From the NCBI GenBank assembly GCA_015232855.1, contig JADFYW010000008.1, positions 761 through 64,760 on the forward strand: DNA of 64,000 nt. Reading direction: 5' to 3'. Position numbers and translations under genes: made by a program. A model generated the notes under the pieces. The model was not told the origin of the DNA. It was given only the letters and a program-made list of their open reading frames with translations, and did no database searches. The DNA is from Fibrobacteria bacterium (GTDB lineage Bacteria; Fibrobacterota; Fibrobacteria; UBA11236; JADFYW01). Every line of letters starts with the position of its first letter. Position 1 is the stretch's first letter. Below are positions 1,298-20,327 of this stretch, piece after piece.

Positions 1298-3064
1298 ATG
1301 AAACACTTTCATAAAAGCCATGGTCATCATAAACTCAAACTCGCGGGCATCAAACGTTCTTTCAAAACCATTGTATTTCCCAGATGGAGGCTTCTTTTAC
1401 TGGGTCTTTTGCTTATTGTTGTTAATCGTTTTGCCAGTTTAGTACTGCCTGCAAGTACCAAGTATTTTATCGACCGAGTACTGGCTGAGCACAACATGGA
1501 GCTTTTAAAACAGCTCATGATTGGTGTTGGGGCCGCAGTTTGTATACAAGCGGTAAGTTCCTTTTTTCTTACCCGTCTCTTGAGCGTTGAAGCCTATCAT
1601 CTTATCTACCAGCTCAGACTTAAAGTACAAAAACATGTTATACGTCAACCCATAGCCTATTTTGACAATAACCGCTCCGGGGCCCTGGTTTCCCGTATTA
1701 TGAACGATGTGGAGGGAATAAGAAACCTGGTTGGCAGAGGATTGGTACAACTGGTAGGCGGATTTTTAACAGCGGGTGTGGCTCTGGTTTTACTCTTAAA
1801 AATTAACATTTTTTTGACGGCTATTTCTTTTTTGCCCGTTCTTTTATTCAGTGTGATATCTTTATTTGCCTTTTCCTACTTACGTCCTATCTTCCGGAAA
1901 CGCAGTGAAATATTAGCCGAAGTTACTGCCCGTCTTACCGAGTCATTAAATGGGATACGCATAGTCCGGGGGTTTAATGCAGAACGTCGTGAAGAAAAAA
2001 CCTTTAAAGAAGGGGCAAACAGGCTTTTTACCACCATTCGTAAAACCCTCACCGCCACCAGTTTTATCGTGAGTGCGGGAATTTTTGTGATTGGTGCCAC
2101 TTCTTTAACCATTATGGGCCTTGGAGGTATGTTAATCCTCAAGGGAGAAATGACGGTAGGTGACTTTGTTTCGTTTATTTTTTTGCTGGGGTTTTTAGTG
2201 GCCCCTATTTTACAGATAACCAATGTGGGTACCCAGCTGACTGAGGCTTTTGCCGGCCTGGACAGAATGGAAGAAGTGTTGACTTTGCCCCTGGAAGGGC
2301 AGGAACCTGAACGCATACATAGTCCGCATGCTATTAAAGGCGCCATTCGTTTTGATCAGGTCTCGTTTTCTTATGAAAAAGGCGAAGAGATTATTCATAA
2401 CCTGAGTCTTGAAATACTCTCTGGCAGTGTTACCGCTTTGGTAGGCTCTTCGGGCTCAGGGAAAACAACGATAGCGGGGCTTGCCGCTTCTTTTCTAAAA
2501 CCCACCAAAGGGATAATTTCCATTGATAATATGGATATATCTACCATAAAGCTAGAGTCCTACCGGAGCCGCCTGGGAGTGGTACTCCAGGATGACTTCC
2601 TTTTTGAGGGAACCATACGGGAGAACCTTCTGTTTACCCGGCCAAAGGTAAATGAAGAAACTTTGCTGGCAGCAGTAAAAGCGGCCCATATTGATGAATT
2701 TTCTGATGGGTTTGAAAAAGGCCTTGATACCATAATCGGCGAGCGGGGTGTAAAACTCTCGGGGGGGCAGCGCCAGCGAGTAGCTATTGGCAGGGCTCTA
2801 ATTGCAGACCCTTCGGTACTGATTTTAGATGAAGCCACCTCAAGTCTGGACTCAGAAAACGAAATGCTTATTCAGAAAAGTCTCGACTTTTTACTCAAAG
2901 GCAGGACCACCATTGTTATTGCTCACCGGTTAAGTACTATTAAACGAGCTGACCAGATACTTGTGGTTGAGGGCGGACGCGTTGTTGAAAAGGGGCGACA
3001 TGAGTTCCTTTTGCAAACAGGCGGCAGGTATCACGAATTGTATACGTTACAGGCTCGGATTTAG
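1298..3064 (+). CDS. ABC exporter, fused permease/ATP-binding (MsbA/MdlB-like)
   Basis: N-terminal TM domain; Walker A GSSGSGKT, signature LSGGQRQR, Walker B LILDEATSSLD, IAHRLST. Confidence 0.93.
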   Translation: MKHFHKSHGHHKLKLAGIKRSFKTIVFPRWRLLLLGLLLIVVNRFASLVLPASTKYFIDRVLAEHNMELLKQLMIGVGAAVCIQAVSSFFLTRLLSVEAYHLIYQLRLKVQKHVIRQPIAYFDNNRSGALVSRIMNDVEGIRNLVGRGLVQLVGGFLTAGVALVLLLKINIFLTAISFLPVLLFSVISLFAFSYLRPIFRKRSEILAEVTARLTESLNGIRIVRGFNAERREEKTFKEGANRLFTTIRKTLTATSFIVSAGIFVIGATSLTIMGLGGMLILKGEMTVGDFVSFIFLLGFLVAPILQITNVGTQLTEAFAGLDRMEEVLTLPLEGQEPERIHSPHAIKGAIRFDQVSFSYEKGEEIIHNLSLEILSGSVTALVGSSGSGKTTIAGLAASFLKPTKGIISIDNMDISTIKLESYRSRLGVVLQDDFLFEGTIRENLLFTRPKVNEETLLAAVKAAHIDEFSDGFEKGLDTIIGERGVKLSGGQRQRVAIGRALIADPSVLILDEATSSLDSENEMLIQKSLDFLLKGRTTIVIAHRLSTIKRADQILVVEGGRVVEKGRHEFLLQTGGRYHELYTLQARI

Positions 3065-4455
3065 CAGACACCTTGTTCCTTAAGGAACTCCGCAAATTCC
3101 ATATCGGTACCCAGGATATGGTCGGTGAGCCAGGAAACCAGAAAGCCGGAAACGCTGCCTGGAAATATATACTTTTTATCTTTATTTATATCCATTACCT
3201 GAGTGGTAAGGTCGTGATGTTTCGCCTTGTGTTCATTTTTTTTAGGATAAGCATATTTATCCATCAGTGCTTCTTCGTTATTAAAATGGATTACGGTGTA
3301 AGCCAAAAGCTTGTCAAAAAGGGGAGCTATCTGTTCTGCTCCCGTTCCAATTGCAAGGCCAGATTGAAAATCATTGATGATTTGAACAAGGGTCATATGT
3401 TCTTCATCAATACTCCCAATTCCTATACTCAATTTATCCGACCAGACGAGTAGTTCGGGACTAGTGTCGTCAGATTGTCCTGTGGAACCTTTTGCTTTAT
3501 CCATTACCAGAATCAACGACTCCCCTTTATTAAGGATAAGTTCCGGTGCAGGATTGGTGGTGGTTATACTATCACTGTTAAAATAACTTACAGCTGAAAC
3601 AGCACGGGTTTTTTCCAGTATCTCCTTAACAGAAGCGGAAGAAGAATTGTAATGTTTGTATACCTTAAAAAAGAAACCATGCACATCCCACTCTGAACTT
3701 TCTTCCGTTTCTTCAATAAATTTCTCATGTTTTTGTGCAATGAGACGTGCAATTTGTTCTCCTCCCAGGCGAAGGGGATAGACAATGGTATTTGCCCCGG
3801 CACGAAGCAGACGTTTTTCAATTTCAGGTCCGCTCCCCTGGGCAATGATGTTTATAGAAGCGTTAAGCTCCCGGGCAGCCATGGAGATAAAGAGTGATGT
3901 AGAATCATCGGGTATACTGACCACCACGCCCAGAGCATTTTCGATGCCTGCATCAATAAGGACCGCGTCCCGGGTGGCGTCTCCTTCAACCGTTGGAAAT
4001 CCTCGCTCTTCGGCTAAAGCCACATTAACTTTGTCTGATTCTATAACCACAAACGGAATATCTCTTTCATGGAGTTTTAAGCAGATGGTTCCACCTGTCC
4101 TCCCATGGCCACAGACAATATAGTGTTCTTTCATATGTTTTATTCGGCGTCCCATCTTACGTCTCCCATATATACCTGTTAATTCACCTTCAATAATAAT
4201 ACGGACCAGTTGGGTTGCAAAAGAAGCTGCTACACCTAATCCAAGAAAAATAATGACGATACTTAAAATGCGCCCGGCAGTGGACATTTCCCGAATTTCG
4301 CCATAACCCACAGTGGTGATACTAATTGCTACCATGTAGAAGGAATCAAATAGTGTCCAGTTATCTTCTATAAAATAATACCCAAGGGTTCCAAAAACGA
4401 ATATGGCGAGTACCGCAATTGAAATTTGAGCAAGGTTTTTTACGTAATTGTCCAT
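3061..4455 (-). CDS. 2-TM potassium channel with TrkA-N/RCK domain fused to C-terminal bacteriohemerythrin
   Basis: Filter TTVGYG; RCK HYIVCGHGRTG and GDAT; hemerythrin ligands IDEEH, HFNNEE, HKAKH, WLTDHILGTD. Confidence 0.88.
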   Translation of the reverse strand: MDNYVKNLAQISIAVLAIFVFGTLGYYFIEDNWTLFDSFYMVAISITTVGYGEIREMSTAGRILSIVIIFLGLGVAASFATQLVRIIIEGELTGIYGRRKMGRRIKHMKEHYIVCGHGRTGGTICLKLHERDIPFVVIESDKVNVALAEERGFPTVEGDATRDAVLIDAGIENALGVVVSIPDDSTSLFISMAARELNASINIIAQGSGPEIEKRLLRAGANTIVYPLRLGGEQIARLIAQKHEKFIEETEESSEWDVHGFFFKVYKHYNSSSASVKEILEKTRAVSAVSYFNSDSITTTNPAPELILNKGESLILVMDKAKGSTGQSDDTSPELLVWSDKLSIGIGSIDEEHMTLVQIINDFQSGLAIGTGAEQIAPLFDKLLAYTVIHFNNEEALMDKYAYPKKNEHKAKHHDLTTQVMDINKDKKYIFPGSVSGFLVSWLTDHILGTDMEFAEFLKEQGVC

Positions 4456-4648
4456 AATCAGTATTTGGTCCCACAGAAGTCAGGTTTGACTTTTTGTTTT
4501 TTACCAGTCTCTTAAAACCGTATGACTCTCAATTTTACTAATTACACCAGAGGTGTAACAAGCTGTTTTGTAGTGCTCTTTATTTTCATATTACGTATTT
4601 TACCTTAAAAAGTAAACTGGAAAGAGATTCCGGGAAAGTAGAGATGAA

Positions 4649-5311
4649 ATGAGATCGTATATTATGATAGTGAAGTTGGTTTTTATAATGGCCCTACTAT
4701 TTTCAATGAATAGTTGTTTGAAAGACAGCCCGGTAAGTGAAGAAGTGAGTGACGCGCAAAAAGTTACCGCATTAAAAAAGGTCACCCTTAGTTTTGATAG
4801 TCTCGGGTTTGAGATAGGAATGCCGGCAGGGGCCCTTTCCGGAAAATCCTTTTCTGAGTTAAGGACAGCTGACTCGGCGTTGTATAGTGACAAAAGTAAT
4901 TATACCATTACCTTTACCCTGAATATGACGGCTGACAACAGCGACAAAGACGCGCGAGACGCAAAATTTGATGGTATACTCGTAGAAATGGTTTTGGATA
5001 CGATATCATTATCACCTGTTGATATGGAGGCTACTGAGTTTGAGGTGGCCAGGGGGGAATCCCAACCAGTTGCAGTAGTAGGTGATATTAACGGAGAAAC
5101 CCACGGCCCTTCCATGAAGTATATTTTCCGCAGGACCGTTGATGGGAAAGACCTGGCAACAACACTATCCCTTTTTCTTAAGTACCAGGTCGGCGTATTG
5201 GCAGGAGATGTTGCCTTGCCTGACATTAAGAAAGACATTCCCACCAGAGCAACCCCGGAAATGAAGTCCTTCCTTTCCGGGTTACTTGATTCTGGAGTGT
5301 TGGACGGGTAA
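4649..5311 (+). CDS. Hypothetical lipoprotein
   Basis: 220-aa ORF with hydrophobic N-terminus and lipobox-like MNSC. Confidence 0.6.
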   Translation: MRSYIMIVKLVFIMALLFSMNSCLKDSPVSEEVSDAQKVTALKKVTLSFDSLGFEIGMPAGALSGKSFSELRTADSALYSDKSNYTITFTLNMTADNSDKDARDAKFDGILVEMVLDTISLSPVDMEATEFEVARGESQPVAVVGDINGETHGPSMKYIFRRTVDGKDLATTLSLFLKYQVGVLAGDVALPDIKKDIPTRATPEMKSFLSGLLDSGVLDG

Positions 5312-5469: not shown

Positions 5470-6168
5470 TTATTTTTCGATTTCAATCTTATCAGAATAA
5501 TACCATTCGAACATGTCCCGGCGAAGTTTGGCCATATAGGTTTTCTTTTCCATTTTACGTTTCAGGTTATAAAAAACAACTCCTTCCGCCATTTTATTTT
5601 CACCTTTATGGATCTTAAGGTAGAACAGAGAAAAAAGATAATCTTTAAACCATGCACTCCAGTTCTCAAAATTGCGTTCATGTTCATGAAAAGATTTGTA
5701 CCGGAGATGCTTAATGGCTTTGCTGAACGGATACCAGAGATGATAGTCGAGTTTATAGGGGTTTCCTTGCAGTTTTGGGCCTATTACTTCTCCGGCCTGT
5801 TCACCATTGGCTTCCACATACCCCTTATCAATTGCCCGGAACACCCCCTCTATTAAAAAGACCTTTCCTTTTAAAACTTGAAGTGGATCAATTACGTTTT
5901 TGCGGTTCTGAAAGGCCACCAGACGGCCATTTTCTGTTTTTAGTTTACAATTGCTTCCGTCAAGTTTTTCAGTACAGATAGTGTCCTCATCTTCAAAAAC
6001 CCATTCATATCCCGGGTTTATTTCATCGGTTACCAGGTAGACCTTCGGCTCCCTTAATTGCAGGCTACGCCCGTATTTCCGCCATTGATCCTTGTTAACT
6101 TTGTAGGTCTTACGGATATACGGACATTCTATTTTAGGAAAATCGCTAAGTATAGGTTGTTCAGACAT
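5470..6168 (-). CDS. ATP-dependent RNA ligase, RLIG1/C12orf29 (DUF5565)-like
   Basis: Nucleotidyltransferase motif I TEKLDGSN, GEVIGPKLQGNPY, EGVVF, MAKLR; AGGAGG RBS before the MSEQ start at 6168. Confidence 0.75.
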   Translation of the reverse strand: MSEQPILSDFPKIECPYIRKTYKVNKDQWRKYGRSLQLREPKVYLVTDEINPGYEWVFEDEDTICTEKLDGSNCKLKTENGRLVAFQNRKNVIDPLQVLKGKVFLIEGVFRAIDKGYVEANGEQAGEVIGPKLQGNPYKLDYHLWYPFSKAIKHLRYKSFHEHERNFENWSAWFKDYLFSLFYLKIHKGENKMAEGVVFYNLKRKMEKKTYMAKLRRDMFEWYYSDKIEIEK

Positions 6169-6288
6169 AAGAAACCTCCTCATTTCTAATATATATTTTT
6201 ACACATTAGAAAAATCACTCATATTATTCTGGATATCAGTCCTTAAAAATTATTTGGGGGCGACTCTGTGCGATATTTTTTTAACAAC

Positions 6289-9852: not shown

Positions 9853-9948
9853 ATTATTGGGGCGTAAAACTGGCAGAACTTCACATTATTGGGGCGAATA
9901 ATTGGCGAAAGTTCACATTATTGGGGTGAATAACTGGCGAAAAAGGTG
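9853..9948 (+). repeat. Three imperfect 32-bp tandem repeats upstream of AAA ATPase
   Basis: attattggggcgtaaaactggcagaacttcac / attattggggcgaataattggcgaaagttcac / attattggggtgaataactggcgaaaaaggtg. Confidence 0.85.
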
Positions 9949-9969: not shown

Positions 9970-11283
9970 ATGGAAAGGAATATATACAGGCGATTATTAA
10001 GCTGGAAAAGGGATAAAAAGCGGAAGCCGTTAATTTTGAAAGGGGCAAGGCAGACGGGCAAAACTTATTTGCTAAAGAAATTTGGAACTCAGGAGTATAA
10101 AGACTGTCATTACTTCAATTTTGAAGAAACTCCAGAAATAAAAGATCTCTTTATTAATAATTTAAAGCCTGAACACCTCTTACCCAATCTTGAACTTTAT
10201 TCTAAAAAAAAGATACATGCTAAGACTGATCTCATTATCTTCGATGAGATTCAGTCTTGTGACGGAGCATTAACATCTCTTAAATATTTTAATGAAAATG
10301 CGCATAACTACCATATTGCCGCTGCGGGTTCACTCTTAGGTCTTAAGCTCTCAAAAGGTTCGTCATTTCCTGTGGGGAAGGTTAATCTTTTTAATATATA
10401 TCCTTTAACATTCTCTGAATTTTTATCAGCAATTGGTGAACAGCAATATCTGATTTTTATTCAAGAGCTTAGTTCGAAAACAAATAGTTCAGAAGTATTT
10501 CATAAGCATCTCATTGAATATTTACGTTGTTACTATTTTACCGGAGGCATGCCGGAGGTTGTAAAAGAATATCGGGACTCCAAAGATTTAGCGGTATGTC
10601 GAAACATTCAAAAAGAAATTCTTACAACCTATGAACTTGATTTTGCCAAGCATGCAAAGACAATAGAAATTCCCAAAATTTCATTGTTGTGGGAATCTGT
10701 TCCCGGGCATTTATCCCGGGAAAATAAAAAATTTGTTTTTTCTTCTGTGAAAAAGAGTGCTCGGGCGCGAGACTATGAAAGCTCGCTTCAGTGGCTTATG
10801 GATGCGGGCTTGATATACAAAACCTATGCAACGGAGCGTGCCCGAGGGCCGCTTCAGGCAAATCTTAAAAAAGATATTTTTAAGATTTATCATTTGGATG
10901 TTGGTTTACTTGGCGCTATGGTAAATATGAGCTCAGATATTTTATTACAAAAGAATATGCTGTTCAATACCTATCATGGCGCTTTTGTGGAAAATTATGT
11001 GGCTACGCATTTAAAAGCGATTAGAGAAGAAACTTTAATTTATTGGAAAAGTGAGGGGAAAAAGGCTGAAGTAGATTTCCTCATTGAAAATAATGGGCAT
11101 ATATATCCTCTAGAAGTGAAAGCAGGTATTAATACAAAAAGTAAGAGTTTGAAATCATTTAGTACACAATTTCACCCCCCTAAACTTCTGAGAATAAGTT
11201 TGCTTCCACTTCATGTCGGTAATAACATTCTTAACATACCCCTCTATGCGTTACCAGAATTAGAACGGTTGATGCATCTTTGA
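9970..11283 (+). CDS. AAA_14 ATPase with DUF4143 C-terminal domain
   Basis: KPLILKGARQTGKT, IFDEIQ, AAGSLLG, FPVGKV, TGGMPE, EVDF...PLEVKAG; ATG at 9970 preferred over GTG at 9946. Confidence 0.88.
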   Translation: MERNIYRRLLSWKRDKKRKPLILKGARQTGKTYLLKKFGTQEYKDCHYFNFEETPEIKDLFINNLKPEHLLPNLELYSKKKIHAKTDLIIFDEIQSCDGALTSLKYFNENAHNYHIAAAGSLLGLKLSKGSSFPVGKVNLFNIYPLTFSEFLSAIGEQQYLIFIQELSSKTNSSEVFHKHLIEYLRCYYFTGGMPEVVKEYRDSKDLAVCRNIQKEILTTYELDFAKHAKTIEIPKISLLWESVPGHLSRENKKFVFSSVKKSARARDYESSLQWLMDAGLIYKTYATERARGPLQANLKKDIFKIYHLDVGLLGAMVNMSSDILLQKNMLFNTYHGAFVENYVATHLKAIREETLIYWKSEGKKAEVDFLIENNGHIYPLEVKAGINTKSKSLKSFSTQFHPPKLLRISLLPLHVGNNILNIPLYALPELERLMHL

Positions 11284-11741
11284 ATTGAAACTTGCAAAAT
11301 GTTCGTTAAAGTTTTCTTTAAAGGAATCAGCACTTTCGGTCTTTATTAATAATTACCATTACGGATTACTCATGATACGATTTCTTGGCATTAAGTCCTT
11401 AAAAGATATACCCCTAATATGTGGCGCTCCTTTCAGAAAAATGAAAACATATTTTGTATGTTCAGCATGTAACACCAGGGTCCTTGGCCATGCCTCTGAA
11501 TATCAGCATAAAACATGTGAATGCGGTGGTGAGTTTAAAGAGGATTTTAAGGTTAGTTGAGAACATTCAATTACCATCAGCTCAGATAATCCCGATTAAT
11601 ACGCCAGCCAACAGAGCTAAAGACCATCATCCCGACAAAAATACAGAATTTGTTCATGTTTTACCCCTTCGTTGCTAAAGTATAAGGGTGCGGCTCTTTT
11701 GAAACGATGGGAAATTGAAAATAAACTTGAAACAATACACT

Positions 11742-11863
11742 TGTCATTCTCCGGCTTGACCGGGGAATCCACCTTTGATGAAACAAAACTTGCTTTATAT
11801 GAGAAAAGGAGAAACAATCTATATAACTCGGGATGGATTGCCCTGTCAAGCAGGGCAATGACA
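11742..11863. repeat. REP-like double-hairpin palindromic element
   Basis: tgtcattctccggcttgaccggggaatcca ... tggattgccctgtcaagcagggcaatgaca; two inverted units, each an imperfect hairpin. Confidence 0.8.
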
Positions 11864-12140
11864 TTGTAATAGCATTTTTATGTATTTTTAAAGTATTAAC
11901 ATCGTTTGAAAAGAGTCGCACCCAAAGTATAATAGGAAAGAAACGACTCACCCTTCTTTTTCATTATATGTGAATCTATAAAACCGGCATTGGACAGCAG
12001 GCTCACAACTTCATTTTGTGAATAAGTAGTAAATGGTTTGAGTAAAGTATGTGCTTAAATGTTTATCCCTCTATGCGTAACCTTTGTGTCAAAAAGGTTA
12101 ATATTGAACAGAACTAATTTAAAAAAAAGAAATATTTGTA

Positions 12141-12169
12141 TTGAAATAATAAACATTTGATGGTATACT
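12141..12169 (+). promoter_or_regulatory. Sigma70 promoter of the tRNA leader
   Basis: TTGAAA (12141-12146), 17-nt spacer, TATACT (12164-12169) with extended -10 TG and AT-rich upstream; predicted +1 near the A of ATG 12176. Confidence 0.75.
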
Positions 12170-12175
12170 TATGTT

Positions 12176-12226
12176 ATGTTTAAAATTAATCAAAATCAAT
12201 GTTGTAGGCATAGATCACTGATGTAG
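12176..12226 (+). CDS. Putative attenuator leader peptide MFKINQNQCCRHRSLM (probably leaderless)
   Basis: ATG 7 nt after the -10 box; CAA-AAT-CAA-TGT-TGT cluster matches the downstream tRNAs; stop codon lies in the 5' arm of the antiterminator. Confidence 0.6.
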   Translation: MFKINQNQCCRHRSLM

Positions 12227-12249
12227 CTCTGTTATATTGATTTTCAATG

Positions 12250-12280
12250 AGACCCAGCTACTTAGCTGGGTCTTTTTTTT
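12250..12280 (+). terminator. Intrinsic terminator (attenuator) upstream of the tRNA genes
   Basis: agacccagct-actt-agctgggtct 10-bp stem followed by a T run. Confidence 0.88.
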
Positions 12281-12334
12281 GTCCAAATTTTAGCGAATCA
12301 ATTTACCTATAAATTGATGTTTAGAAGTAGTACT

Positions 12335-12406
12335 GATCGAGTATCCAAGTGGTTAAGGAGATGGTCTGCAAAACCCTTATCGTGGGTTCGAATCCCACCT
12401 CGATCT
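12335..12406 (+). tRNA. tRNA-Cys (GCA)
   Basis: Acceptor gatcgag/ctcgatc, anticodon loop ctGCAaa, T arm gtggg-ttcgaat-cccac, U73; one anticodon-stem mismatch; no encoded CCA. Confidence 0.88.
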
Positions 12407-12408
12407 CT

Positions 12409-12483
12409 TCCCGGTTCGTCCAATAGGCAGGACATCAGATTTTGATTCTGGAAATGGTGGTTCGAACCCATCACTGGCAGCCA
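12409..12483 (+). tRNA. tRNA-Gln (TTG)
   Basis: D arm gtcc/ggac, anticodon loop ttTTGat, T arm ggtgg-ttcgaac-ccatc, G73 plus CCA; C2:C71 acceptor mismatch. Confidence 0.83.
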
Positions 12484-12651
12484 ACAACCAATAACCCAGA
12501 GGGGGCAGCGGAGAAACGTTGCCAAAGAACTCGCAAAGGGAATTGATACTAAATTAAAATGTAAAACAAGAAAAAAATATTTCTATTATTCTGCAGAGTA
12601 ACAGGAATTTATTGTGAAAGTCATCCTCATCTTCCGTAAAAAGGTACAACA

Positions 12652-13077
12652 TTGATACATATTTCTCCCTGTGGCTGGTACTGTTTCACATGCAACAACA
12701 ATGGATGGATTCTAAAAGAAACCCAGGATAAAACTACCATACGCAGCAATGACAAGACCAGTGTCATCGAACTCCTTGGTGCCAGAAAATCAACAGCACC
12801 TGTCAACGATGAGGTTCAAGAGTTTCAAGAGGATTTTTTGAAACAGGAAAGAATTCTTCCATTCAAAACCATAGTTTCAGAAAATACTTTTAGGGTTAAA
12901 TACTATGTGACAAAAGGAACTGATATGGATAAACGTTCCTGGATTATCAGTCATGCTTTCTGGGATAATTACTGTGTGCTTATAACATTTCATGGATTAC
13001 AAACAAAACATTCTAATCCCCGGATGCAGTTATTTTATGATATTTTGAGTTCACTTCAACCGTTGGTGAACTGCTGA
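12652..13077 (+). CDS. Hypothetical protein (weak resemblance to DUF3805-like proteins)
   Basis: 141-aa ORF with TTG start; ISPxGW N-terminus. Confidence 0.45.
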   Translation: MIHISPCGWYCFTCNNNGWILKETQDKTTIRSNDKTSVIELLGARKSTAPVNDEVQEFQEDFLKQERILPFKTIVSENTFRVKYYVTKGTDMDKRSWIISHAFWDNYCVLITFHGLQTKHSNPRMQLFYDILSSLQPLVNC

Positions 13078-13154
13078 TAATCAATAGCAGAGTACATCGT
13101 ATTGGTTTCAATTTTCTTTTCTCAACATATTATTCCTTCTTTTGCAAGAAAAAA

Positions 13155-14258
13155 TTATAATTTTCGAAATAGCCAATTTTTCAGAAGTAAATCTTGTATA
13201 TGATATACGTTAGTTTTATCTACAATACCGGCCGTCAATAGAGCATCAGCAGCTTTTTTCACTTGAGATGCGGTTTGGAGTTGCACCCCTTGAATGTTTT
13301 CTGCACTAAATATGTTTACGCCACCACATTTTAAAATAAGCTTCATAACCTTTTTTTGATTCAGTGTTAAAGAATCCCAGAGAGTTTGAAATTCACCTTC
13401 ATGCCTTTGGATTAATAATTCCAGAATAACATTGATATCGATAGCTTGAGGATCTTTTTTCTCCCATAAATGAAACAAAAATCTTTGCACATACATAGGG
13501 TGACATTCACACGCATCAATAATTGATGATATGAATTCTTCTTCTAACGGTGTTCCCTTTGGTCCAAACATTTCTTTGACCCATTTGAGATAATGTTTCT
13601 TTTCTATGTCCAGCAATTCATAAGGTTCCGCCTGCCGATAAAAGGCCTGATTATTTTCCGAAAACATCCGTAAAAGGATATGGCGCTTACTTCCGGAAAA
13701 TACATAGGAGGTGTTATCATGTATCTGGATAATTCTTCTTAACCTCTTTTCAAAATCAGGTTCCGCATAATCAGCCACTTCCTGAAACTCATCAAAAACG
13801 ACACAAAGGTCTTTCTTTTTTGAAAGTGTGTATATAGCCGAAAAGGCCTCATCAAGGAATTTTTCTTTCTGAGAAGGGATGAAGTTGGGACTAATTGTTG
13901 GAGTAGCAGTGGTTGGATCCATGGACACGGTTAAACTTAAGGAAGTGAACGTTCCTTTAAGCAGTTTAAAAAGCCTGTCCAGATTCAATTCAAGCTGTTT
14001 TAATGCTTTAAAAATAGCGGAGATAAAATCTGTCTCTGATATAGTCCCATAGAGATCCACATACAGGAACTTTCGTTGATTTTTAAGTTTCTCAGCCGTT
14101 TTAAGAAGTAAAGAGGACTTTCCCATTCTACGATTAGAATAGAGCACTACATTCTGATTGCCTAAGATATAGACCGACAGGTCTTTTAGTTCTTTTTTAC
14201 GATTGCAGAAGGCTTTTCCACTCACAATCTTTGTATACGAAAAGGGGTTTGTTTCCAT
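13155..14258 (-). CDS. Archaeal-type AAA ATPase (ATPase_2) with C-terminal winged helix
   Basis: NPF...FCNRKKEL, degenerate Walker A SNRRMGKSS, VFDEFQE, YVFSGS. Confidence 0.82.
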   Translation of the reverse strand: METNPFSYTKIVSGKAFCNRKKELKDLSVYILGNQNVVLYSNRRMGKSSLLLKTAEKLKNQRKFLYVDLYGTISETDFISAIFKALKQLELNLDRLFKLLKGTFTSLSLTVSMDPTTATPTISPNFIPSQKEKFLDEAFSAIYTLSKKKDLCVVFDEFQEVADYAEPDFEKRLRRIIQIHDNTSYVFSGSKRHILLRMFSENNQAFYRQAEPYELLDIEKKHYLKWVKEMFGPKGTPLEEEFISSIIDACECHPMYVQRFLFHLWEKKDPQAIDINVILELLIQRHEGEFQTLWDSLTLNQKKVMKLILKCGGVNIFSAENIQGVQLQTASQVKKAADALLTAGIVDKTNVYHIQDLLLKNWLFRKL

Positions 14259-18689: not shown

Positions 18690-20327
18690 ATGAATGAAGT
18701 AAATCAAACCTGTGAGACACAACTTACAGATACCAGAGATGATTCTGGATTAGCAAATACGTTAATACATAGGATTTCTGAACTGGCACCCTGCGGGGAG
18801 GACCCCAAGTATACACCGGAATTTGAATCTATAAAAGCTGAAATTGAAAAATCAACCGGTGCTGATTACAATATAATCCGTGATAATGCAGATTCAATTC
18901 TGACAAACAATGCAAAGGATATCCGTGTATTCAACTTTTATTTATTGGCCTCTGTTAAGACAGAAGGGTTTTCTCGATTTGCCGATATATTAGGCGCTTT
19001 TCATTTTTTTCTTGAGCAACATTTTGATATTATTCACCCACAACGTCCCGTTGCTCGTATCAATGCTTTTAAATGGTTGAACCAGGAAAAGGTAATAGCT
19101 CTTTTATCTCAAGGGTCGGTTTCTCGTGAACATCATGACGTTTTAAAAAAAGGGCTTGATTCACTTAACAAGATTAAAGAAATCATAAACAACAGATTTC
19201 CGGATTCTCCCCCTTCCATCAAAGGAGTATTAAAACTGGTGGAGGCCTGGGTTTCTGAATCACAACCTGAAGAAAAACCTCTAGCCACAGTGCAAGCAAC
19301 TCCTCCTTCCTCTCCTCCGCCCCCAGCTGCAGTCTCCACCGTGGTTTCTGCCATTCCAGGCGCGGGAGACCAATTAACCGGGGGAATTGAAGATAAAAGT
19401 GCAGCCAAAATTCTCTTGCAAAAGACAGCTCAGTTTTATCTGGAACAAGAAACCCATAATCCACTGAGTTACACCATTATGCGTGCGCTAAAGTGGCAGG
19501 AGATCGCCAAATCACCTGTGGTTGAAAATGGACGATTAAAAATACCAGGACCAAATACTCAGATGATTTCTTTTTATCCAAATCTGGTTGAAACAAAAAA
19601 TTGGATGGATATTGTAAAGAAGGGAGAGTCAGCTTTTACCCGTCCAGGTATGCATTTTTGGCTGGATTTGCAATTTTATATTTGCCTGGCTTTTAAAAAC
19701 CTTGGAGAAGAGTATTCTTTTTGTCAGTCAGTGATTGAACGGGAATTGTTGGCGCTAATCTTACGGGTACCTTCATTATTGGAAATTCAATTTCAAGATG
19801 GGACCCCACTCGCATCTTCACAAACTTTAAGCTGGATTGAGTCAATCCAGGCTGGCTCATCTTCAACAGGTGAGGAAAGTAGCAGTCCAAAGGAAACATC
19901 GGAATTTCTTGAAGGGAAATCTCAAGCCGTAACATTGGCAAATGAAGGAAAATATGCGGAAGCGATTCAATTAATCCAGAAAATCCCCCATTCTGGTGAA
20001 ATTAAGACCATTATGGAAAAGCAATTTATTCTTGCGGAGCTTTCTTATATGACCGGAGAAAACGACATTGCAGAATCTCTTATTGAAGATATCCAGAATA
20101 GCACAAAAAATTTATCAGTTGGAGTTTGGGATTCTGCCTTTTATAAACCGGTTTTAAACCTTAGTATTAAGGTTTGCAAGTCACTATTAGATAAACTTGA
20201 TGCAAAAAACAGTGCACCGGAAAGGCGTCAGGAGCTTATTTCAAAAATAAAAGAGAGCCATAAAAAGTTAAGTTGCTTAGATCCCGTTTTTGCGAAAACA
20301 TCAATTAATTTAAACATGGTAAAATAA
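18690..20327 (+). CDS. tssA: Type VI secretion protein TssA (ImpA_N + VasJ-like)
   Basis: GEDPKYTPEFESIKAEI, KDIRV, HPQRP..R.NA..W, Pro-rich linker, FWLDLQ, FQDGTPLAS; directly upstream of tssBC. Confidence 0.85.
   Translation: MNEVNQTCETQLTDTRDDSGLANTLIHRISELAPCGEDPKYTPEFESIKAEIEKSTGADYNIIRDNADSILTNNAKDIRVFNFYLLASVKTEGFSRFADILGAFHFFLEQHFDIIHPQRPVARINAFKWLNQEKVIALLSQGSVSREHHDVLKKGLDSLNKIKEIINNRFPDSPPSIKGVLKLVEAWVSESQPEEKPLATVQATPPSSPPPPAAVSTVVSAIPGAGDQLTGGIEDKSAAKILLQKTAQFYLEQETHNPLSYTIMRALKWQEIAKSPVVENGRLKIPGPNTQMISFYPNLVETKNWMDIVKKGESAFTRPGMHFWLDLQFYICLAFKNLGEEYSFCQSVIERELLALILRVPSLLEIQFQDGTPLASSQTLSWIESIQAGSSSTGEESSSPKETSEFLEGKSQAVTLANEGKYAEAIQLIQKIPHSGEIKTIMEKQFILAELSYMTGENDIAESLIEDIQNSTKNLSVGVWDSAFYKPVLNLSIKVCKSLLDKLDAKNSAPERRQELISKIKESHKKLSCLDPVFAKTSINLNMVK

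Follow-up and report, generated by a model that had tools for sequence, protein, structure and literature searches.

A putative ribosome-mediated attenuator ahead of spare tRNA-Cys and tRNA-Gln genes in Fibrobacterota, with counterparts in Bacteroidota

Why would a pair of transfer RNA (tRNA) genes sit behind a promoter, a very short open reading frame (ORF) and an intrinsic terminator, with that ORF carrying the codons that the two tRNAs read? The question is raised by a 64,000-nucleotide (nt) stretch of DNA from a Fibrobacteria bacterium (GenBank assembly GCA_015232855.1, contig JADFYW010000008.1; hereafter, the window), in which such a leader precedes genes for tRNA-Cys(GCA) and tRNA-Gln(UUG). 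The answer favored here, from comparison of sequences and predicted folds, is that the leader is a ribosome-mediated attenuator that would respond to slow decoding of Cys and Gln codons by turning on spare, divergent genes for the tRNAs that read them; a probability of about 0.72 is assigned to this reading, and comparisons within two phyla support it. The genome assembly holding the window (G000), which was obtained from mixed DNA, comprises 5.38 Mb in 350 contigs, is 80% complete, and has a G+C content of 40.7%. The comparison covered four Fibrobacterota-type cassettes, namely, those of the window, of genome G016 (locus L002; 97% complete assembly), of genome G031 (L003/L174), and of metagenome contig L037, together with two Bacteroidota cassettes, L015 (genome G296) and L016.

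All of the elements described in a first-pass annotation of the sequence (promoter, leader ORF and its codons, terminator, alternative hairpin, and both tRNAs) were found where it had placed them (Table 1). The promoter is sigma70-like, its -10 element carrying a TG extension two bases upstream, and inspection by eye found the same promoter type directly 5′ of other G000 tRNA genes that have no leader. The ORF, which ends in TAG at 12224-12226, has CAA at 12191 and 12197 and TGT at 12200 and 12203, such that 4 of its 15 sense codons are cognate to the downstream tRNAs (binomial P = 0.0115, with 0.062 as the trinucleotide background). The AGG and AGA Arg codons that had been put forward as further stall sites show no conservation in the homologous leaders, and that part of the earlier proposal is not supported. 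The region's best promoter-like site (TTGAAA, 16-nt spacer, TATAAT; 11/12) lies at 11906-11933; it precedes the leader promoter by about 240 nt and no gene is evident behind it.

Table 1. Leader features and tRNA genes of the cassette, in window positions
Feature	Position	Strand	Remarks
Promoter	12141..12169	+	-35 TTGAAA (12141-12146), 17-nt spacer, -10 TATACT (12164-12169); promoter scan 10/12
Putative leaderless leader ORF, MFKINQNQCCRHRSLM*	12176..12226	+	16 codons; ATG 6 nt past the -10 element
Candidate regulatory codons CAA AAT CAA TGT TGT	12191..12205	+	Gln and Cys codons cognate to both downstream tRNAs
Hairpin 1:2 (anti-antiterminator, likely pause hairpin)	12192..12244	+	Minimum-energy and centroid fold
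Antiterminator (2:3)	12223..12261	+	12223-12228 with 12256-12261; 12235-12240 with 12244-12249
Intrinsic terminator (3:4)	12249..12282	+	Stem 12249-12274, 11 pairs, 6 of them G-C; 4-nt loop; T run
Spacer with small hairpin	12283..12334	+	Motif AGCGAAT...GATGTTT.GAA common to the G016 spacer
Variant tRNA-Cys(GCA)	12335..12407	+	ARAGORN; Rfam 59.7 bits; U73, CCA not encoded
Variant tRNA-Gln(UUG)	12409..12483	+	ARAGORN; Rfam 48.2 bits; U1-A72, G73

The full-length window leader folds into two hairpins (-34 kcal/mol, z = -5.15): the terminator, which is the sole terminator-like site within 11000-14000, and a hairpin added to those of the first-pass annotation, in which 12192-12202 pairs with 12234-12244 and the CAA AAT CAA TGT codons form the 5′ strand (hairpin 1:2; equivalents occur in L037 and G016). 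The alternative hairpin that had been proposed to sequester the terminator 5′ arm, with the stop codon inside it, was found by folding with the terminator 3′ arm removed, when 12223-12261 became the minimum-energy fold; its 5′ strand, GTAGCT, includes the TAG, and the partner consists of the last bases of the terminator 5′ arm and the loop. Thus, hairpin 12192-12244, antiterminator 12223-12261 and the terminator make up the complete 1:2, 2:3, 3:4 layout of a classical attenuator, and the trp/his-type geometry originally claimed for the locus (leader ORF, terminator, and an antiterminator blocked from the stop codon) is supported by both the folding and the homologues.

Folding was also carried out with a masked ribosome footprint, each leader being taken only up to the terminator loop (3′ arm absent). 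In the window, the antiterminator forms with the ribosome at the TGT codons (-13.4 kcal/mol) and is lost with the ribosome at the stop (-0.1 kcal/mol). The same dependence on ribosome position was obtained for all four Fibrobacterota-type leaders: when the ribosome was placed at Cys, Gln or Glu codons, an antiterminator remained on the terminator 5′ arm (-9.9 to -20.6 kcal/mol, mean pairing probability 0.71-0.98), and a ribosome at the stop removed this structure (-0.1 to -11.1 kcal/mol, mean pairing probability 0.31-0.69). In each of the four, only a few bases at most separate the start of the antiterminator 5′ strand from the stop codon.

Between terminator and tRNAs, the first-pass annotation had considered a separate promoter, in 12280-12335; none was found in a scan of the window spacer, with no promoter-like site at 12190-12334. 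The terminator stem ends 6 nt before the first tRNA in G031 and 19 nt before it in L037, too close for a separate tRNA promoter to fit in these two cassettes. The motif and small hairpin in the spacers of the window and G016 may represent a processing site.

Sequence, predicted folding and comparison with relatives establish the leader elements, their alternative folds and conservation, and the redundancy of the tRNAs; where transcription starts, that the ORF is translated, that the folds compete kinetically, and what the physiological trigger is are inferred. Transcription would start at or beside the A of the ATG at 12176, so that the leader would be translated as a leaderless messenger RNA. 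As long as tRNA-Gln(UUG) and tRNA-Cys(GCA) decode normally, the ribosome would reach the TAG and cover 12223-12228, the terminator at 12249-12282 would form, and the tRNA genes would stay off; in the event of no translation, hairpin 12192-12244 would form and the terminator would again be free to form. If usable Gln or Cys tRNA were short, a ribosome stalled at the CAA or TGT codons (12191-12205) would block hairpin 1:2, upon which the antiterminator would capture the terminator 5′ arm and RNA polymerase would read into tRNA-Cys and tRNA-Gln. The output of read-through upon stalling would thus be a second, divergent copy of exactly those tRNAs sensed as short.

Homologous cassettes are rare. 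A pattern for the window-type tRNA-Cys matched 3 of 296 Fibrobacterota genomes (G000, G016, and G031), and stricter tRNA-Cys patterns, matching 2 and 4 of the 39 genomes of the order, added no cassettes. A metagenome scan returned 45 stretches, among which L037 was the sole homologue, the rest being tRNA-Gln genes, mostly in long tRNA arrays and some alone. The four copies share 69-79% identity in tRNA-Cys and 76-82% in tRNA-Gln, above their identity to host canonical or viral tRNAs, and lie in differing gene neighborhoods with no other synteny. All four leaders have a sigma70-like promoter (TTGCAT/TATTCT, TTGACA/TACCTT, and TTGACA/TATAAT in the homologues of the window leader), an ATG 6-8 nt past the -10 element, and a terminator ahead of the tRNAs. 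An intact leader ORF is found in three, with 16-17 codons, Cys plus Gln or Glu codons, and a terminal TAG at nt 49-54. The G016 leader, MNYSFANFQQCRGGHH*, includes CAG CAA TGT (3 of 15 codons cognate; binomial P = 0.061), and the G031 leader, MKPRICTRNECMEEAMI*, has two TGT and three GAA codons (5 of 16 cognate; binomial P = 0.0085), its cassette being Glu(UUC)-Cys-Gln with tRNA-Glu(UUC) in first position and two of the three GAA codons forming region 1. Since the four leaders are merely 1-2 standard deviations more alike than shuffled sequence, i.e., near-random in identity, their common features are best explained by selection. Of what the first-pass annotation expected of homologous leaders, the promoter, the ATG, the terminator and an antiterminator at the stop codon hold in all four and the ORF in three; the match between codons and tRNAs is not strict.

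Two further cassettes, from Bacteroidota, emerged from a scan of 189 tRNA loci with 515 clusters, 32 of which have a terminator within 90 nt upstream. These two, L015 and L016, are also among 7 Cys-Gln tandem stretches of genome contigs, the remainder of which are long tRNA arrays or false matches. In both, a TAtcTTTG promoter (TAnnTTTG being the Bacteroidota-type consensus) is followed after 8 nt by the ATG of a 30-codon ORF, and a terminator lies about 71 nt upstream of the tRNA cluster. The L015 cluster is Cys-Gln-Tyr-His-Arg(ACG), and codons 11-20 of its leader (Arg Arg Cys Gln His Ile Cys Tyr Gln Gln) cover all five downstream tRNAs; of 29 codons in all, 11 are cognate (P = 0.0048). Inside the ORF, 3′ of the regulatory codons, lies the 5′ strand of the L015 antiterminator, and masked folding gave the same ribosome-position dependence. 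Compared by eye, the L015 and L016 ORFs have three base differences, two of them synonymous, and the spacers after the terminator about ten. No further cassette was found in 29 loci examined from 401 genomes of the order of G296.

Ordinary tRNA loci and shuffled sequences served to gauge how often such an arrangement occurs. A BLAST search with the G016 pair against the 296 Fibrobacterota genomes, which missed G031, recovered mostly ordinary tRNA-Gln(UUG) genes and was used as a negative control: 28 Fibrobacterota housekeeping tRNA-Gln(UUG) loci, inspected by eye, have no such leader. Likewise, a scripted scan of 27 ordinary Bacteroidota Cys or Gln loci found no terminator within 110 nt. Across G000 (5.38 Mb), the combination of a promoter, an ATG 5-9 nt later, an ORF of 8-35 codons, and a terminator occurs at 6 sites, the window leader included. 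An ATG in the right place arises in about 0.05-0.07 of shuffles per leader, compared to four of four observed; an ATG followed by an ORF of 13-19 codons with at least 3 cognate codons arises in 0.04-0.13% of shuffles, compared to three of four observed (thresholds set post hoc); and shuffles of the window leader yield ATG, ORF length and at least 3 cognate codons in 4.4e-4 of trials (thresholds likewise post hoc). When 48 short ORFs ahead of terminator-preceded tRNA clusters were ranked blind, the top codon matches were L037, L016, and L015. Several short ORFs upstream of tRNA clusters on viral contigs, among them Tyr-Glu-Asn, Ile-Cys-Thr, Leu(UAA), and Arg-Pro-Pro-Pro clusters, were considered as further candidates and rejected, none being significant given the 48 ORFs.

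The organism also carries a leader of textbook type. On contig C309 of G000 (locus L175, 1863-2010, minus strand), a TTGACA/TATCAT promoter is followed by a leaderless ORF, MMMAFSGKAAYFLLLKDF*, with CTA CTA CTT, an antiterminator (GGAGTG:CACTCC) that begins 5 nt past the stop, a terminator, and then the 2-isopropylmalate synthase gene leuA (HMGL-like and LeuA_dimer domains). This leaderless leu attenuator indicates that the organism uses leaderless leader-peptide attenuation.

The cassette tRNAs are divergent spare second copies. In G016, 46 distinct tRNAs include a canonical tRNA-Cys and, behind an ispE-like gene, a canonical tRNA-Gln(UUG), both in addition to the cassette. In G296, with 44 tRNAs, the anticodons present twice, besides that of Met, are GCA, UUG, GUA, GUG, and ACG, exactly those of the cassette, and the cassette tRNAs are very different from their housekeeping counterparts. 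In G000, contig C22 carries a further tRNA-Cys(GCA), of canonical type, and C33 a tRNA-Gln(CUG); a second tRNA-Gln(UUG) was not found in this 80%-complete assembly, which is no evidence of absence because 20% of the genome is missing. Thus, the separate housekeeping genes expected by the first-pass annotation exist for Cys and Gln in G016, for all five tRNAs in G296, and for Cys in G000, with Gln(UUG) in G000 the part that was not recovered. Identity of the window tRNA-Cys is 65-66% with its canonical Fibrobacterota counterparts (65% with the C22 copy) and 72-79% with the other cassette copies; for the window tRNA-Gln, identity to the other cassette copies is 77-82%.

Side observations were made on related tRNA genes. 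In Fibrobacter-like loci L075-L096, a conserved gene, presumably ispE judging by a C-terminal motif and synteny, lies 5′ of the housekeeping tRNA-Gln(UUG), and the promoter there looks Bacteroidota-type (TTTG ... TAnnTTTG). A short Bacteroidota contig, L351 (G683), has three tandem tRNA-Cys(GCA) genes at 141-633. Viral contigs L158, L166, L170, and L172 (IMG/VR) carry lone tRNA-Cys/tRNA-Gln(UUG) pairs, 3 nt apart and without a leader; the L166 tRNA-Cys has the same variable loop and T arm as the G016 cassette copy.

Several observations weigh against a ribosome-read attenuator. With the complete terminator present, switching at equilibrium is predicted for only one of the Fibrobacterota-type leaders, that of G016; in the window and L037 the terminator dominates in every ribosome state, which means that the switch must be kinetic. 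(In the Escherichia coli trp leader, the terminator hairpin is likewise more stable than the antiterminator.) The G031 fold in the no-ribosome state lacks the expected 1:2 hairpin; region 1 is ATG GAA GAA there, and its U-rich partner can also pair with the terminator 5′ arm. The G031 leader has no Gln codon despite a tRNA-Gln in its cassette. In L037, the 5′ ATG opens an ORF of only 4 codons, and the conserved Gln/Cys frame, ending in KYQYQCNQEGHIM*, is offset by one base, its Cys codon being one base short of the G016/G031 position; this frame also has three GAA codons, yet the cassette has no tRNA-Glu. Because the CAATG common to three leaders doubles as the 5′ strand of hairpin 1:2, its conservation could in part reflect structure. 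In the window itself, C2 and C71 of the tRNA-Gln acceptor stem are mismatched (seen by eye), and the score of this tRNA, 48.2 bits, is the lowest of the set. A look-up of sequencing runs for window positions 11900-12700 listed none. Finally, the statistical thresholds were set post hoc, with the data already seen, and the known loci total only four plus two. The L037 tRNAs are themselves odd by eye, with C33 in tRNA-Cys and several mismatched pairs in tRNA-Gln, and L037 is taken to be a decaying or mis-assembled copy.

Some of these points would also fit a real terminator/antiterminator switch that is not read by a ribosome, in which a protein, a small molecule or an RNA (e.g., the tRNA itself) sets the fold and the ORF is incidental: the alternative folds are conserved, the shared CAATG is a hairpin strand, and L037 keeps the structures without an intact ORF in the conserved frame. 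An incidental ORF does not account for an ATG placed 6-8 nt past the -10 element in every one of the four leaders, at the shuffle frequencies given above, for a stop codon on the antiterminator 5′ strand in the four leaders, or for the ten L015 codons that name all five downstream tRNAs. Sensing by the tRNA itself is known from T-boxes, in which uncharged tRNA is bound directly by a specifier codon together with a conserved T-box bulge, and which regulate synthetase, biosynthesis or transporter genes. The cassette leaders resemble T-boxes in being terminator/antiterminator switches that would respond to the state of a specific tRNA, but T-box features are absent: Rfam at gathering thresholds reported tRNAs only, in the window, L002, L003, and L037, and the antiterminator sequence has no UGG-type bulge opposite the NCCA end. 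A switch without a ribosome is accordingly considered unlikely.

An account held to be equally improbable accepts the attenuator family as real and regards the window copy as the decaying relic of a horizontally acquired, phage-like tRNA pair. The C2:C71 mismatch would fit such a history, as would a Cys-Gln junction that is two bases shorter than in G016 and lacks CCA, the decay seen in L037 (broken frame, tRNA-Cys C33, tRNA-Gln mismatches), the sporadic distribution (3 of 296 genomes), the lone Cys-Gln pairs on viral contigs, and a variant tRNA-Cys T-arm type that matches more than 119 viral-contig stretches, not all of which were checked as tRNA-Cys. However, the promoter, ORF, hairpins, and terminator of the window are all intact, both tRNAs score well over the Rfam threshold of 29 bits, and lack of CCA is common in G000, where it applies to 14 of 36 tRNA genes and a gene of the CCA-adding-enzyme family is present. 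Least probable of all is a coincidence of parts, i.e., a small independent transcript (small RNA or micropeptide) or the terminator of an upstream unit, with the tRNAs transcribed by leak-through or from an unrecognized promoter: short ORFs and promoter-like hexamers are common in such A+T-rich sequence (12 promoter-like sites in 3 kb, with 10.6 expected), and the window and G016 have a 52-60-nt spacer with a shared motif after the terminator, but the whole arrangement accompanies the tRNA pair at four loci without other shared synteny, a promoter has no room in G031 and L037, merely 6 promoter-ORF-terminator sites occur in 5.4 Mb, and cognate codons are enriched in the leaders.

With the ribosome-mediated attenuator thus preferred, the gene neighborhoods suggest what might trigger it. 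RNA-repair genes adjoin three of the six cassette loci (G031, G296, and L016). In G031, an rtcB-rtcA RNA-repair operon is divergent from the leader. In L016, the divergent genes (1978-3185, minus strand) encode a Thg1-like protein and a 146-amino-acid kinase related to polynucleotide kinases, and a metallophosphoesterase gene lies directly 3′ of the tRNAs (4248-5003, plus strand), as it also does in G296 (L333, 7466-8221); the Thg1-like protein, the kinase and the metallophosphoesterase look like an RNA end-healing and repair set. G296 has, in addition, an RtcB-like gene in two frames (L333, 850-1813, minus strand; profile positions 5-70 and 94-341) without the C-terminal part, these fragments lying 5 kb 5′ of the cassette with a WYL-domain regulator and an SNF2/PLD helicase. 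The presence of RNA-repair neighbors at half of the loci suggests tRNA damage, by an anticodon nuclease or otherwise, as the trigger, and these neighbors are the ground for that suggestion. A broader and more tentative idea, which is given somewhat less than even odds, is that some members of the Fibrobacterota-Bacteroidota group have a small tRNA-damage module, in which silent, divergent spare tRNAs switched on by stalling, beside RNA-repair enzymes, would confer immunity against tRNA-cleaving toxins or defense nucleases. If so, the leader peptide would list the tRNAs expected to be lost: Cys and Gln in the window, with Glu, or with Tyr, His, and Arg, added elsewhere.

In G000, tblastn found no RtcB or RtcA. 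An ORF of 237 amino acids in the window (5470-6183, minus strand), 6 kb from the leader, scores 27 bits against Pfam RNA_ligase (PF09414), which is exactly the cut-off; searches of PDB and NCBIfam gave no match for it, and it is a borderline lead only. In the window, as in G016, the cassette has DUF4143 ATPases (PADLOC candidate PDC-S01) as flanking genes; a defense-island link on this basis was considered and rejected because the adjacency looks generic, there being about 14 DUF4143 AAA-ATPase loci in G000 (contigs C68, C116, C304, C306, C33, and C339), several of which lie a few hundred to a few thousand bases from other tRNA genes. It is as if tRNA genes mark variable regions in G000. Upstream of the cassette, at 9853-9948, a 32-nt unit beginning with ATTATTGGGGCG is repeated three times head-to-tail, ending at the GTG start (9946) of a DUF4143 ATPase ORF. 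Direct repeats bracket the cassette at 11237-11255 and 12064-12082 (89% identity) and at 11531-11548 and 12820-12837 (94% identity); the second pair lies inside ORFs of 91 and 141 amino acids, both of which encode an EF(K/Q)EDF motif. These repeats may be the trace of a duplication around an insertion, and no convincing direct repeats pointing to an integration site were found around the cassette. For the 141-amino-acid ORF, which lies 3′ of the tRNAs, the predicted fold is PsbP/DUF3805-like and suggests no connection with the cassette. A type VI secretion gene (ImpA_N and VasJ domains; 18690-20327) lies 6 kb downstream.

Leader-peptide attenuation of amino-acid operons (trp, his, leu, thr, pheA, and ilv) is textbook knowledge, and the cassette leaders resemble those attenuators in their clustered regulatory codons, hairpins 1:2, 2:3, and 3:4, terminator, and stop codon placed to block the antiterminator. 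They differ in that tRNA genes, rather than biosynthetic enzymes, would be controlled, such that the response is more decoder and not more amino acid, and in that one leader would sense two to five amino acids. Closer in form are the leaderless leader peptides of Deinococcus deserti, which attenuate genes for aminoacyl-tRNA synthetases and biosynthesis, for instance a cysS leader with two Cys (PMC4007540). These share with the cassettes a start at the 5′ end without a Shine-Dalgarno sequence, Cys codons as the sensor, and an output in the translation apparatus; as far as the text of that report goes, the output is a protein gene (synthetase), and none of its 14 leader peptides precedes a tRNA gene (PMC4007540).

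Closest in outcome is the trn operon (L-array) of Anabaena sp. PCC 7120, described as a horizontally spread set of extra tRNAs that is normally silent and is induced by impaired translation; it has 23 functional tRNAs, responds to general translational stress, lies in neighborhoods that are enriched in RNA-processing genes, and has rtcB co-regulated with it (PMC8421152). The same report proposes that the tRNA set is split into housekeeping and inducible subsets, and notes that little is known of how tRNA genes come to be regulated differentially (PMC8421152). As in the L-array, the cassette tRNAs are redundant with, and divergent from, the housekeeping set (in G016 and G296, and for Cys in G000). 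Control of the L-array is attributed to tandem 9-nt repeats in the promoter, over the -10 element and start site, and to a putative repressor (PMC8421152), whereas the cassettes have a terminator and a leader peptide naming specific tRNAs, with 2-5 genes each; unlike in the L-array, there are no repeats over the window promoter (12141-12176). The window cassette thus resembles the L-array in outcome and is not a member of the L-array type. A third parallel is provided by phage-encoded tRNAs, which are thought to restore translation after host tRNAs are cleaved by defense nucleases (PMC10264068, PMC11555353, and PMC12409363). Like these, the cassettes hold divergent extra copies of particular tRNAs, and related Cys-Gln pairs occur on viral contigs; unlike phage tRNAs, which are carried by phages and expressed during infection, the cassette is chromosomal and, as a ribosome-mediated attenuator, would be self-regulated. 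A full-text literature search that did not extend to the supplementary array and promoter maps of PMC8421152 found no attenuator or leader peptide ahead of tRNA genes. The combination of attenuation with inducible supernumerary tRNAs thus appears to be new, as does the use of tRNA genes as the output of an attenuator.

The Anabaena trn operon is, in the literature found, the one detailed case of regulation of individual bacterial tRNA genes (PMC8421152). If the attenuator reading of the window leader is correct, these cassettes would form a loop in which the speed of decoding feeds back directly on the supply of tRNAs, and would extend attenuation from the supply of amino acids to that of tRNAs. 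The leader is compact, with about 110 nt from the start codon to the end of the terminator, which suits it to reporters and to systematic genome searches. The cassettes would also offer a handle on the idea that genomes hold a silent reserve of tRNAs for tRNA damage, with the leader predicting which tRNAs are at risk and the neighboring RNA-repair genes suggesting the kind of damage.

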